Of a DNA stretch of 64,000 nucleotides, positions 8,930 to 59,310 are shown piece after piece. The stretch comes from a virus. Both the position numbers and the translations under genes were made by a program. The notes under the pieces are model-generated. The model searched no databases. It was given only the letters and a program-made list of their open reading frames with translations, and was not told where the DNA came from. The stretch lies in IMG/VR virus record IMGVR_UViG_3300027908_000026. The stretch is one strand, 5' to 3'. Within the stretch, counting starts at the first letter, position 1, and every line of letters starts with the position of its first letter.

Positions 8930-9406
8930 ATGAATCCAAAACAGGGTGAACATGTAATCATTTGTCTCAGGAACGGAGTCCAGCTTGAAGGCGATGTGAT
9001 TAGCTGGAGCGATGGAAAATCTGCATTAAAATCTTCCCAGGGTACAGCAACAATTGTTCTTCAGAAGACTCTCGATGATGTACTCTTCTTCAAGATTACA
9101 AATTTCCGCGATGACTATGAGGAACTAAAAGAGAAACCCGTCAAGGAAGAAGACGACATAAAGCAGCTAGCAGAACTCAAATCTCAGATAAATGAGATGG
9201 ATAGAGCTGATCTTCGCGAGAAAATGTCTAGTCATCAAGCAGATGGAATGAGAGAAGTAAGTTATGAGCTACCATGGTCAAATATCAAGATCCCTGGCAC
9301 TGTCAAACGTCCCGGAGAAAAAACTACAGGAACAGATTCTGAACTTGGTTCAGAGCTGCAAAATTTGTTCTCAGAAAAACGTAAAGGTAATAGAACAAGC
9401 TCTTGA
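8930..9406 (+). CDS. Hypothetical protein
   Basis: 158-aa ORF in operon; 3' end overlaps the next gene by 143 nt. Confidence 0.7.
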   Translation: MNPKQGEHVIICLRNGVQLEGDVISWSDGKSALKSSQGTATIVLQKTLDDVLFFKITNFRDDYEELKEKPVKEEDDIKQLAELKSQINEMDRADLREKMSSHQADGMREVSYELPWSNIKIPGTVKRPGEKTTGTDSELGSELQNLFSEKRKGNRTSS

Positions 9407-10016
9407 TGGTCTCTGTGAGAGATGTTCAATAATGGCTATTGCATACAATAGGTATGCCAATAGCAACGTACCCGTTAGTTATTGGAATCTTGATATGAAA
9501 GATTTCAAAGGGCCGATTGCTCTAAATAATGCTTATGAAGAAATAATTAAGGATTTAAGTTTATCATATAAAAACGGAATATCGGTTTGTTTTGCTGGTT
9601 CACATGGTTTGGGAAAAACTTCAACGGCGACAAACGTCCTAAAAAAAGCCTGTCAAAAAAACTATACTTGTCTTTATACAGTATTAGAAAATATAGTTAG
9701 TGCTCTAACGGATGCGCCATCTGAGGAAAGATTTTTGGCGCGCCGAGAACTTACAGGTGTTGATTTTCTTGTAATCGATGAATTCGACCCGCGTGTCATT
9801 CAAACTGAAGCAACAGCAGATTTATTTGGAAAAATGCTTGAGAACATTTTCAGAACCAGGTCCCAGAATAAACTCCCAACTATATTTTGCACCAATAGTC
9901 CGAACCCAGTAGAATCATTCACTGGTTCCATCAAAAACAGTATAGATAGTTTGATGTCTCAGGTTAAAGTTATTCCAGTACTAGGAAAAGATTTTAGAAA
10001 ACAGCAGGTGATGTAA
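9264..10016 (+). CDS. DnaC/IstB-like AAA+ ATPase (helicase loader) with N-terminal Zn site
   Basis: CKIC...CERC, Walker A GSHGLGKT, Walker B LVIDEF; adjacent to DnaB. Confidence 0.85.
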   Translation: MSYHGQISRSLALSNVPEKKLQEQILNLVQSCKICSQKNVKVIEQALDGLCERCSIMAIAYNRYANSNVPVSYWNLDMKDFKGPIALNNAYEEIIKDLSLSYKNGISVCFAGSHGLGKTSTATNVLKKACQKNYTCLYTVLENIVSALTDAPSEERFLARRELTGVDFLVIDEFDPRVIQTEATADLFGKMLENIFRTRSQNKLPTIFCTNSPNPVESFTGSIKNSIDSLMSQVKVIPVLGKDFRKQQVM

Positions 10017-55423: not shown

Positions 55424-55479
55424 GCAACCAATATAACCATCTGCCAGGAGCCTGCTATATATTAGAGTAAGGAAACGTT

Positions 55480-55725: not shown

Positions 55726-56028
55726 ATGAATCATTCTAAGATACTAGAGCTTGCAACGCAGTTCCATAAAAATGCAGTAGAACCACCCACCCAAGAAGGG
55801 AAACATCATATAGATGTTGATGCCATTGTCCTTGCTCTTAAAGAACTTGGTTCCGCAACGTTGGATGAGCTATCGAGAAAGACTAAAACCTATGATAGAA
55901 CTCTTATTCGTATATTAGAAAAGCTTATTGAGACAGGTATTGTCAATAAGAGACAAGAAGAACGCAAACGAAAAGCTTTTCAAGGAAGCACAAGAATCTT
56001 TAATGTTAATGTGTATTCTGTTGTTTAG
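55726..56028 (+). CDS. Winged-helix protein with LAxxF leader
   Basis: MNHSKILELATQFHKNA; ATLDELSRKT...LIRILEKLIETGIV. Confidence 0.7.
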   Translation: MNHSKILELATQFHKNAVEPPTQEGKHHIDVDAIVLALKELGSATLDELSRKTKTYDRTLIRILEKLIETGIVNKRQEERKRKAFQGSTRIFNVNVYSVV

Positions 56029-56309
56029 ATTAGTATAGCTAACTTGTCTTCGCCATTAATCAATCTCCAACCAGCCGCTACCAAAGCAGCATCGACGGTT
56101 TTCATTGCGGCATCTTTTGATGTTACGCCGCGGTCCAATAAAGGTTTTGTAAAAATACCCACACTGTTGCAATCATAAGCGTCGAAATACCACGCTCCAA
56201 AATGAACACTATACCAAACACAGCCGCACCATCTGCTTCTATCATGATGCCTGATTCTATAATTGGAAGCGCCACGTTCTCTCCATGGTAATGCAATATA
56301 GTTCTTCAT
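56025..56309 (-). CDS. C-tag protein, GYK...KxLL family (variant)
   Basis: Ends GWRLINGEDKLAILI*. Confidence 0.75.
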   Translation of the reverse strand: MKNYIALPWRERGASNYRIRHHDRSRWCGCVWYSVHFGAWYFDAYDCNSVGIFTKPLLDRGVTSKDAAMKTVDAALVAAGWRLINGEDKLAILI

Positions 56310-56602
56310 ATCAGCACCTGCATATGTTGCGGTAGTTGTTTATAACCGTTTTGAATCAAGTGAGATATTGTATACTTTTCTGCTTCTTCGTATGTTCTAA
56401 ATTGCATAACAGTAAACATTATTTCGGGTTCCGAGTTAAAATATGTTGTCAAATGATATTTGATACCATTTTGTGGTTCTCCCATACGACGCCAAATACG
56501 TACTAATAAAGTTTTGTTTTTGTTCGGTATAAAGAACTTCCAGTTTGCGTCATAATAAGTAGCAGCAAGTGGAATTTCATCAGATTGTATAAAAGCTTTC
56601 AT
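56306..56602 (-). CDS. C-tag protein, GYK...KxLL family
   Basis: Ends GYKQLPQHMQVLI*. Confidence 0.78.
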   Translation of the reverse strand: MKAFIQSDEIPLAATYYDANWKFFIPNKNKTLLVRIWRRMGEPQNGIKYHLTTYFNSEPEIMFTVMQFRTYEEAEKYTISHLIQNGYKQLPQHMQVLI

Positions 56603-56877
56603 AATAGTGTTTTGTAATGGTCCCCTAGCAATTTATAACCAAGCTTACATAGGTTGTTCAATATATGGTTTTCTGCTTCTTCGAAACTGTCAAACTCAAT
56701 GCCTGTCATACTATCATTTGTACACCATGCGTTGTATGTATTCATTTCTTTGTTAAACCTAATGTCTGCAATAGTTGTATAATGCCCAGAAGCTTCGAGG
56801 TACTCATAAAGCCAGGCAACTGTTGTGATGTCTCGGAAGAATTTTCCAATTTTCCTTGGTCCAAAACATACTTTCAT
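56599..56877 (-). CDS. C-tag protein, GYK...KxLL family
   Basis: MKVCFGP start by family similarity; ends GYKLLGDHYKTLL*. Confidence 0.78.
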   Translation of the reverse strand: MKVCFGPRKIGKFFRDITTVAWLYEYLEASGHYTTIADIRFNKEMNTYNAWCTNDSMTGIEFDSFEEAENHILNNLCKLGYKLLGDHYKTLL

Positions 56878-56915
56878 AATAACACCTGTAAAATAATCTT
56901 GTAGAATTTTCTCAT
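56874..56915 (-). CDS. 13-aa mini-ORF MRKFYKIILQVLL, essentially the C-tag alone
   Basis: ATGA overlap at both ends, exactly filling the gap between two family genes. Confidence 0.55.
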   Translation of the reverse strand: MRKFYKIILQVLL

Positions 56916-57178
56916 AATAGTGCTTTATAGTGGTCTGCCATTTGCTTATATCCAAGCTTTGTTAGGCCTTCCAATAGATAGTGGTTAGCGTCTATTAAAC
57001 TATTAAATACACCATACATGATCTTAGATATATTATAGTTTATATAAAAAATAACAGTATAATTAGAAGTTTCATCATAGTAAAATATATTTGCTATGAC
57101 AACGTTTTTTGAATCCATATACTGCCAAATTGTAACACCATCGGCGATTCCAATATTGGGCCCGAAAACCGCTTTCAT
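56912..57178 (-). CDS. C-tag protein, GYK...KxLL family
   Basis: MKAVFGP; ends GYKQMADHYKALL*. Confidence 0.78.
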   Translation of the reverse strand: MKAVFGPNIGIADGVTIWQYMDSKNVVIANIFYYDETSNYTVIFYINYNISKIMYGVFNSLIDANHYLLEGLTKLGYKQMADHYKALL

Positions 57179-57429
57179 AATAACAGCATATACCTTTCTG
57201 GCAGCACTTTATAATTTCGACATTCTAAGTATTCTTTGCACCAACAGCAAGCTTCTTCAAAGGTTTCAAAGTTTTTGTATGCTCCCTCATAATAGCAGCA
57301 TATATTGTATGACTTATTTGTGTATCTAATAATGTCTACGATAACATCCTGCAGCGAATCATAATAAACCCATTTCTCCATTCCGGATTTTGAGTTTATA
57401 TTGCAGCAAATTGGCCCGAAGATTATCAT
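57175..57429 (-). CDS. C-tag protein, GYK...KxLL family
   Basis: MIIFGP start by family similarity; ends NYKVLPERYMLLL*. Confidence 0.72.
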   Translation of the reverse strand: MIIFGPICCNINSKSGMEKWVYYDSLQDVIVDIIRYTNKSYNICCYYEGAYKNFETFEEACCWCKEYLECRNYKVLPERYMLLL

Positions 57430-57511
57430 ATGTTGCAGACATAAGGATGTCGATGATCTTGCATGGTGGAAAATATAACACGCTGCATAGCATCGCGCTA
57501 TATAATAGAGA

Positions 57512-57772
57512 ATGAAAAAGATTGTGTTCGACTGGGAGCAAGAGAAGTCTAGCGTATTCGAGCTGTGTATAGTACATTTTGATGCAGATAGAAATTGGAT
57601 TGCATCCGTTGTAAAGCTATCCAAGGATACGTATCTTGTTAACTTCAATGGTAGAACAATATTGGACCAACAAGTTTTTACAAATATCAATAATGCAAAA
57701 GCTTATGTCGATAATAAGCTAAAACATCTTGATTATAAGATAATTGCTCTTGATTATAAGGCGCTCTTATAA
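57512..57772 (+). CDS. C-tag protein, GYK...KxLL family
   Basis: MKKIVFDWE; ends DYKIIALDYKALL*. Confidence 0.78.
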   Translation: MKKIVFDWEQEKSSVFELCIVHFDADRNWIASVVKLSKDTYLVNFNGRTILDQQVFTNINNAKAYVDNKLKHLDYKIIALDYKALL

Positions 57773-57777
57773 ACATT

Positions 57778-58041
57778 TCATAATAAAAGCAAAAGCTTCT
57801 GAAACTTATCATAAAGCTTGGGAACTTTCTTTGCTGCTACGAGCATATATGGAAGACTGTTCTTATTAAATGCTCTAATAAAATCCGTATAGTCTTTTGC
57901 CGTAGTAAAGGATTTTGTTTCAAATATCGTGCTAAAGAAATCTATATAGCATTCACAGCTAGCAGGATTAATCCCACGGTTTGACCAATAACTGCACCAC
58001 GGGCATCTCGGAAGACCATTCTTTTCACAATTGTTCATCAT
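57778..58041 (-). CDS. C-tag protein, Cys-rich CxxxGL family
   Basis: CEKNGLPRCPWC; ends KFQKLLLLL*. Confidence 0.78.
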   Translation of the reverse strand: MMNNCEKNGLPRCPWCSYWSNRGINPASCECYIDFFSTIFETKSFTTAKDYTDFIRAFNKNSLPYMLVAAKKVPKLYDKFQKLLLLL

Positions 58042-58316
58042 AGTAATGTCTTATAATGATCTGGTAAATGTTTGTATCCCAATTCTATTAGAGCAGCATC
58101 CATGTACTGCATCGTTTCTTCAAGGGAATCGAATTTCTGCTGCGTCATCATCATAATATCGCCATACATATGTAGAACAAAATGTTTGGAAGTTTCGTGC
58201 TTGATAATAAATGCTATGCAGGCGCCATGTATATCGCAGCAGCGCCATATATTATAGGATGTTCCAGAAGGAGTTTTATATTCTCCGCCGTAGTTTGCCG
58301 TAAAGAATGCTTTCAT
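58038..58316 (-). CDS. C-tag protein, GYK...KxLL family
   Basis: MKAFF; ends GYKHLPDHYKTLL*. Confidence 0.78.
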   Translation of the reverse strand: MKAFFTANYGGEYKTPSGTSYNIWRCCDIHGACIAFIIKHETSKHFVLHMYGDIMMMTQQKFDSLEETMQYMDAALIELGYKHLPDHYKTLL

Positions 58317-58561
58317 AGTAGACAACGTAATTTCATTACGTCCTCGTAATATTCTGGATATTCTGTTTTAATCACAGCAAATATAATATCCATAAGATCA
58401 GAATGTGTAGAAAAACGAGCTTCCTGCGACCAAATGTTTATAATACTTAGCAGTGTAAACTTCATATTGAATGATTCTTTTCCCATCTGCATGTTAATGT
58501 ATTTCTTTGTAATAGTTCTGCATTGCTCAAATGCAAGTTGTTTTTGTTGTTCATTCATCAT
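58313..58561 (-). CDS. C-tag protein, helical type
   Basis: Ends EYPEYYEDVMKLRCLL*. Confidence 0.75.
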   Translation of the reverse strand: MMNEQQKQLAFEQCRTITKKYINMQMGKESFNMKFTLLSIINIWSQEARFSTHSDLMDIIFAVIKTEYPEYYEDVMKLRCLL

Positions 58562-58571
58562 GTGTGCACCA

Positions 58572-58700
58572 TCAGATAAGTAATGAGAGCTTCTCTAGCA
58601 TCATAAGTTGTTTTGGGTAGTCCTGCAGCAGTGCATCTATTGCGCATCGTGAGAATATAACCAGTCTACGGCATGCTGCTATATAATAAACAAATGAAAA
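58572..58700 (-). pseudogene. Start-less C-tag remnant
   Basis: ...AIDALLQDYPKQLMMLEKLSLLI*, close to EALRDYPEELATLEKLIVLL* of 52208..52480. Confidence 0.55.
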
Positions 58701-58903
58701 CTATTACAATAGATGAGATGATAACAAGATTCGAAATGGCGCGCCAAGAGGAAGAGCTTCATAGATGGATGGTCGAAGCAATCCGCAGGTTTGTCAAGCA
58801 GCATATAAATAACAAGCAAATGATGGATATGTTTATTGAGATGGTTAAGAAAGAATATCCGAATTATTTGGGATATGTAGAGAAGATAATGGTATTGGTA
58901 TGA
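58694..58903 (+). CDS. C-tag protein, helical type
   Basis: Ends EYPNYLGYVEKIMVLV*. Confidence 0.75.
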   Translation: MKTITIDEMITRFEMARQEEELHRWMVEAIRRFVKQHINNKQMMDMFIEMVKKEYPNYLGYVEKIMVLV

Positions 58904-59172: not shown

Positions 59173-59310
59173 ATAGGAGAGTATAACCATCCTGCAGTAC
59201 GCTGCTATATAGAATGATGATGAATTGTAAAACTTTGGGAGTACAACCATCCTATTGCTGCTGTAAAGTTATGTATTACAGAATCTTGCATTGTGATTTA
59301 TTGGTATAAT

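Follow-up and report, generated by a model that had tools for sequence, protein, structure and literature searches.

A 13-codon open reading frame coupled at both ends in an array of tagged phage genes: a probable stub of a deleted paralog

The DNA analysed here, a stretch of 64,000 nucleotides from the IMG/VR virus record IMGVR_UViG_3300027908_000026 (hereafter the window, meaning the whole stretch), is part of a large uncultured phage and encodes, among others, a tubulin/TubZ-like protein, UvsW- and DnaB-type helicases, a ribonucleotide reductase, PhoH and an IMPDH/GMP-reductase with an HNH insert. Its GC content lies between 0.33 and 0.40 as far as about 59.6 kb and rises to 0.53-0.56 after that point, and no tRNAs were found in the window. 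From about 38 to 59.6 kb lie about 46 small genes of several unrelated families, such as a Zn-ribbon-like family (~190 aa), a Cys-rich family (~85 aa, with the motif C-x3-GL-x2-C-x2-C) and a ‘GYK’ family (~90 aa), all of which end in one short C-terminal tail, with a consensus of approximately D/E-K/H-[LYI]-x-[VLIT]-L-[LKAIV]-COOH. The tail acts at the protein level: operon-terminal genes that stop with TAA or TAG and have nothing downstream carry it as well, and its Leu codons vary. An earlier note on this DNA had concluded that the tail behaves as a separable unit; in evolutionary terms this holds, the same tail being found on at least three unrelated families, but the conclusion follows from those families and not from the short reading frame for which it was drawn. 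A promoter-like repeat, GC(T/G)GCTATATA(A/T)TA, is found in the divergent intergenic regions of the array (55447-55476, 57490-57519, 58671-58700 and 59177-59211), where it probably marks the starts of transcription units. A literature search for a tag of this kind in jumbo phages returned nothing relevant.

The GYK...KxLL family has 14 paralogs in the window and 118 representatives in a library of 1.84 billion proteins, nearly all of which end in ..GYKxLPxHxKxLL. The AF2 model of the member at 56599..56877 (mb69f3849cfcb, pLDDT 90) predicts strands between residues 2 and 62 and a helix at residues 65-78, and the tail is modelled as a GYKL strand with a short terminal helix rather than as a floppy end. 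A Foldseek search of the PDB with this model gave no match, and neither Pfam nor PHROGs matched the families of the genes studied below. Relatives of the phage, reached through the tubulin gene, are 54-68% identical in that protein and thus too distant for synteny in so fast-evolving a region. Two of them are referred to in the following. In G003 (IMGVR_UViG_3300044797_000098, 406 kb), which shows weak family matches, at least 55 ORFs carry the tag, with tails such as ..EKYxLLI and ..GYILLTEExxLLI, concentrated at 240-380 kb, whereas G001 (IMGVR_UViG_3300034073_005389, 361 kb), which has the closest tubulin (68%), has essentially no tagged ORFs, so that the tail system is patchy within the clade.

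The feature under study belongs to a polycistronic run of GYK-family genes (Table 1), in which neighbouring genes are joined by 4-nt ATGA overlaps. The only gap in the run, which reads from 57429 to 56025, is one of 34 nt, and it is bridged by a mini-ORF with the minus-strand codons ATG AGA AAA TTC TAC AAG ATT ATT TTA CAG GTG TTA TTA TGA. The earlier note had described a 13-aa ORF with ATGA at both ends, and its sequence, frames and overlaps all check: the ATG (56915-56913) overlaps the TGA of the upstream gene 56912..57178 in a common ATGA at 56912-56915, and the TGA (56876-56874) overlaps the ATG of the downstream gene 56599..56877 in a common ATGA at 56874-56877. The mini-ORF and the two flanking ORFs are on the same strand and in three different frames, and the same-strand stop/start overlap by which termination-reinitiation is recognised (ATGA or TGATG) is found at both ends of the mini-ORF, without which the flanking genes would be separated by 34 untranslated nucleotides. 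The product can be divided into a family-like head (residues 1-5, or 1-8) and the hydrophobic half of the C-terminal tag (residues 9-13, LQVLL). With 13 residues in all there is no carrier protein for the tail and no room for the core of the GYK family (a beta-rich part of ~60 residues plus the helix F-x-T-x-E-x-A), and the mini-ORF would be at most a remnant of this family, not a member.

Table 1. Positions in the window of the mini-ORF, its neighbours and the reading frames compared with it.
Feature	Position	Strand	Basis
Upstream gene of the GYK...KxLL family, 88 aa, C-terminus HYKALL before the TGA	56912..57178	minus	sequence, family comparison
Mini-ORF of 13 codons, product MRKFYKIILQVLL followed by the stop	56874..56915	minus	sequence
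Downstream gene, 92-aa member of the GYK...KxLL family, which starts with MKVCFGP at ATG 56877	56599..56877	minus	sequence, family alignment, AF2
Polycistronic run, five family genes and the mini-ORF	56025..57429	minus	4-nt ATGA overlap at every junction
29-aa ORF, head MRNRCTAAGLP as in the N-terminus of the Cys-rich tagged family	58558..58647	minus	C-x3-GL motif
+1-frame tail of the 29-aa ORF, DYPKQLMMLEKLSLLI followed by the stop; full tag, no usable start	58572..58622	minus	family C-terminus comparison
Eight-codon doubly coupled mini-ORF MVSVRDVQ, no tag	9406..9432	plus	bridges 8930..9406 and the next gene

The double coupling is unremarkable when taken alone, because the ends of tagged genes (NTA-TGA) and the starts of family genes (ATG-A) favour it, and because many spacers are open by chance. 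All tagged genes from 46 to 59.6 kb that have an overlapping downstream start end in NTA-TGA, which always contains ATG, and the family start ATG AAA always yields ATGA; one spacer length in three gives the right frame, and in a Markov simulation 44% of random spacers of 34 nt remain open. Coupling at both ends is thus nearly free, and the mini-ORF might be an ordinary spacer, left open by accident in the frame which the two ATGA motifs impose, with an end that is tag-like only in appearance. Such reading frames do occur: the mini-ORF at 9406..9432, which has no tag, overlaps its neighbours in TGATG and TAATG (the start of the next gene at 9432 being probable), and in G003 a few very short, doubly coupled mini-ORFs follow tagged genes. 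What chance has to account for, then, is the end of the mini-ORF.

This end was scored with a tail PSSM, built from the 46 genuine tails of tagged genes, which were themselves scored leave-one-out. LQVLL reaches 10.3 bits and beats 40 of the 46 real tails; at the extreme C-terminal end it has the Leu of the tag at –2 and aliphatic residues at –5, –3 and –1. Elsewhere in the window only 2 of 3760 frame ends score as high or higher, and when the comparison is made with ATGA-type frame ends these are 1 of 342 in the window and none of 1657 in the tag-less G001. The start contexts of ordinary genes, read in the same frame, gave none in 427 (best 5.0 bits, as against 10.3), and operon-first genes give no sign that the bases encoding LQVLL are a general requirement of the start context. 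Among simulated random spacers, a fraction of 1e-4 combines an open frame with a tail at least as good as that observed, and the overall chance of a tail of this grade is about 1e-4 to 3e-3. On these figures, the 3′ end of the mini-ORF is a genuine tail-coding end, whether by descent or by selection, and an origin of the reading frame in chance is improbable.

As for the remainder of the tag, the likeness stops short of its polar half. Real tails have D or E at –7 in 30 of 46 cases and K or H at –6 in 30 of 46, and tails of the GYK type have H at –6 and K at –4, whereas the mini-ORF has Ile at both –7 and –6 and Gln at –4. Because of the Ile residues at these two positions, in place of D/E and K/H, the score falls when the tail is taken longer, below 43 of the 46 real tails with seven residues and below all 46 with eight. 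FYK-IIL-QVLL can be fitted to GYK-QLPQHM-QVLI only with a gap of three residues, and H(–6) and K(–4) are missing. The description of the ORF in the earlier note as almost nothing but the tag is therefore overstated: it suits the last five residues, LQVLL, but not positions –6 and –7, nor the low scores over seven to eight residues.

The earlier note had also considered a functional free tag peptide that would compete for a receptor of the tag. In this reading the 13-mer would be made together with its neighbours and would bind a putative tag reader, either competing for it or regulating it. The mini-ORF does keep the hydrophobic half of the tag whole and at a free C-terminus, its translation by coupling would follow from that of the operon, and the occurrence of the tail on several unrelated families and in the 406-kb relative makes a common reader plausible. 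However, this proposal is left unsupported by the missing polar half (–7 and –6 both Ile, with an eight-residue score below every real tail), a second tag-like and doubly coupled mini-ORF was not found in the window or in G003, and conservation is not demonstrable among the relatives reached; we regard a free competitor peptide as very improbable. Nor was a counterpart found in the mini-ORF MRNFYHIII... of G003, which was rejected as it lies antisense inside a 462-aa gene, and a loose regex for short tag-only frames is uninformative, matching the tag-less G001 as often as G003. Short C-terminal recognition tails are well known, examples being the LAA-type degron of ssrA/ClpX and the PTS1-type tripeptides. 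Like these, the phage tail is short, mostly aliphatic, placed at the very C-terminus and common to unrelated proteins; unlike these, its motif is longer (D/E-K/H-aliphatic-x-aliphatic-L-aliphatic), and the mini-ORF is without the polar half. It could be imagined that the phage makes a carrier-less ‘decoy tail’, consisting of the hydrophobic half of the tag and produced in step with the tagged neighbours, by which the putative reader would be occupied or tuned, but to this idea we give hardly any weight.

A different origin is suggested by the upstream gene and by the head of the mini-ORF. Operon-terminal tagged genes stop with TAA or TAG in 13 of 15 cases (the exceptions being 57778..58041 and 58673..58903), and the upstream gene 56912..57178 carries a stop of the coupled type, TGA within ATGA, as would be expected if 56915 is, or once was, the start of a cistron. 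The N-termini of the family follow the pattern M-K/R-x-x-F and then G/D-P/W, and the head MRKFY(KII) weakly resembles several of them (MKRFYY, MKFYGP and MKFYKYII), with p 0.03-0.05 against random peptides started at ATGA. Together with the tail statistics, these features point to a gene that has lost its middle.

A clear precedent for such a loss is found only 1.7 kb from the mini-ORF. The 29-aa ORF 58558..58647 begins as a gene of the Cys-rich tagged family, then runs out of frame through the tail of its own family, and ends in an ATGA shared with 58313..58561. Since the head and the out-of-frame tail meet at GGACTACCC, where GLP is read in one frame and DYP in the other, the sequence bears the unmistakable mark of an internal, out-of-frame deletion that cost this gene about 60 codons. 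Internal deletion is, on the strength of this scar, a demonstrated route by which genes of the array are eroded and lost, and a deletion of this sort that stayed in frame would leave just such a reading frame as the mini-ORF. In large phages gene remnants, or deletion scars, are a feature of paralog arrays with fast turnover, for example in the hyperplastic regions of T4-like phages. As in those remnants, the head and tail of a paralog seem to have been kept here and the body lost, with 58558..58647 as a second example in the same array; the difference is that the scar at the mini-ORF would be in frame and would keep the overlap coupling on both sides, so that translation from end to end may be possible.

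The reading that we prefer, with a probability of about 0.6, is that a paralog of the small tagged family lost its interior and left the mini-ORF as a scar, which still relays ribosomes by termination-reinitiation. The tail, the family-like though weak head, the coupled-type stop upstream and the precedent at 58558..58647 make this the best fit, in agreement with that branch of the earlier note in which an internal-deletion product had kept both frame and coupling. A full-length member of the family would once have stood between 56912..57178 and 56599..56877, and an internal deletion would have taken out nearly the whole gene body, so that the start and the few codons behind it (MRKFY...) would now continue, without a shift of frame, into the final codons of the tail (...LQVLL) and the ATGA shared with the next gene. 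Several points weigh against it: the head is a weak match, and so short a remnant does not allow its parent to be named at the DNA level; positions –6 and –7 misfit the tag, through either drift or a join inside the tail; and the junction of a duplication would look the same.

According to this last explanation, there was never a full-length gene at this place, and the mini-ORF is the joint of a tandem duplication or recombination, in which the first codons of the following gene were fused to the last codons of the preceding one. In its favour, the two flanking starts, which lie 301 nt apart, are 78% identical over 27 nt, of which 8 nt precede the start, with GTTATTATGAAAG identical at both, and the end of the mini-ORF, ..QVLL, resembles both ..MLLL, in the gene before the upstream copy, and ..QVLI, in the gene after the downstream copy. 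But the duplication must be old, because the flanking paralogs share only 33-37% protein identity, and without selection the tag-like end of so old a joint should have disappeared by now. In addition, a hand alignment of the spacer with the last 34 nt of the preceding gene gave 14 matches in 34, which is the background level. We therefore hold a duplication joint to be unlikely, and we rejected the variant in which the junction was duplicated in tandem recently, since in a codon-by-codon comparison with the tail of the upstream gene the similarity stops beyond the last three codons.

The deletion could be seen directly in a related genome with a full-length allele, as the earlier note had proposed, and for this the locus was sought in several collections, where neither such an allele nor an orthologous locus was found. 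The viral contigs were searched with each of the flanking proteins, with two neighbouring proteins of 457 and 177 aa and with a family alignment of five sequences, the metagenome and genome contigs with the family alignment (an alignment of 14 sequences being too variable for a locus search), and 50,697 phage records with the region 55-59 kb by blastn. A word search of 5.8 billion proteins returned only the window's own protein, and in an exhaustive profile search of 1.84 billion representatives the closest homologs of the flanking genes were about 33% identical and came from no orthologous locus; in G003 too, syntenic orthologs of the locus were not found. As the locus was found in none of these collections, the deletion is inferred from anatomy, statistics and the neighbouring precedent rather than from a parent allele.

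Whether the mini-ORF is a cistron between two others depends also on where the downstream gene starts. In one public pipeline this gene is called from an in-frame TTG at 56955 (118 aa), and the frame is indeed open back to that position; if this were the start, the 13 codons would fall within coding sequence of another frame and have no meaning. The earlier note had named a real start at 56955, together with a lack of ribosome occupancy, as the result that would speak against its proposal. The 26-aa extension, however, is without counterpart among ~100 homologs, BLAST matches to homologs begin only at residue 27 of the long form, and in a family alignment of 101 sequences M1-K2 of the short form aligns with the nearly invariant N-terminus. 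The AF2 model of the 92-aa form places the first strand from residue 2, the extension amounts to an overlap of 44 nt with the upstream gene, and all other junctions in the run use ATGA. From the alignment and the model we take ATG 56877 (92 aa) to be the real start, and consider the TTG extremely improbable.

Co-directional gene pairs with ATGA overlaps (–4 nt) are coupled by termination-reinitiation (Huber et al., 2019, PMC6728339; Huber et al., 2023, PMC10666635). The mini-ORF resembles these pairs in having ATGA at both ends and in the tight packing of three same-strand ORFs, and differs from them in that two junctions are chained through a 13-codon cistron that has no protein body, and in that the coupling is here predicted from the DNA. 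If the deletion took place as proposed above, the in-frame join would have left a 34-nt remnant open to translation over its whole length: on reaching the upstream TGA, a ribosome would restart on the overlapping ATG, read 13 codons, stop at the TGA and restart at the downstream ATG, and the chain of termination-reinitiation along the operon would thereby be kept unbroken. A relay of 13 codons would not be expected to uncouple the three downstream genes, whereas an untranslated gap of 34 nt would, because in published work reinitiation falls steeply with distance. In two-reporter assays in E. coli and Haloferax this drop was steep enough for reinitiation to be almost lost at +22/23 nt in Haloferax and at +38 nt in E. 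coli, and the last 15 nt of the upstream ORF were enough for reinitiation (PMC10666635). Coupling may matter in this phage, because only 5 of 33 large genes in the window are preceded by SD-like 5-mers. On the other hand, AGGTG, formed by the Q and V codons of the mini-ORF, lies 5 nt before the downstream ATG 56877 and could permit independent initiation, in which case the relay role would be unnecessary. We infer, with these reservations, that a full-length gene was once present, that ribosomes read the ORF and are relayed by it, and that its 13-aa product serves no purpose in itself.

Competing functions at the RNA or DNA level were also considered. The 96-nt fold at the mini-ORF has a z of +0.9, with 165 of 200 shuffles folding as well; no terminator-like site was found near the mini-ORF, and no match to Rfam in the window. 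A leader peptide or attenuator was rejected on these grounds. The spacer is without the array's promoter-like repeat GCTGCTATATAATA, and as to other promoters at the mini-ORF only weak promoter-like matches (9/12) were found, which are no better than elsewhere.

The mini-ORF is thus a real feature, and its most likely explanation is an ordinary one: it would be the stub of a gene and still conform to the coupling grammar of its operon. Alone it matters little, as a small example of gene loss by internal deletion in the paralog array of a giant phage, in which a scar that stays in frame can leave a series of ATGA-coupled cistrons unbroken. For annotation, it is a warning that the downstream gene should be taken from ATG 56877 and not from the TTG of one pipeline. 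Considered together with 58558..58647, it suggests that the heads and tagged tails of genes outlast their bodies, which would be useful for counting and dating the members of the tagged families. The interesting object is the system of shared tails, and to the question of a tail reader the mini-ORF adds little; if a reader is found, a natural ‘half tag’ would be a handy negative or partial control.

One further observation concerns the gene 57175..57429 of the same run. At 57287-57304, inside this gene and in another frame of the minus strand, there is an 18-nt copy, with one mismatch, of the gene's own end, TATATGCTGYTATTATGA (57175-57192, minus strand). In its frame the copy would read ..YMLLL, a stop and ATGA, and it is possibly a trace of recombination between junctions.
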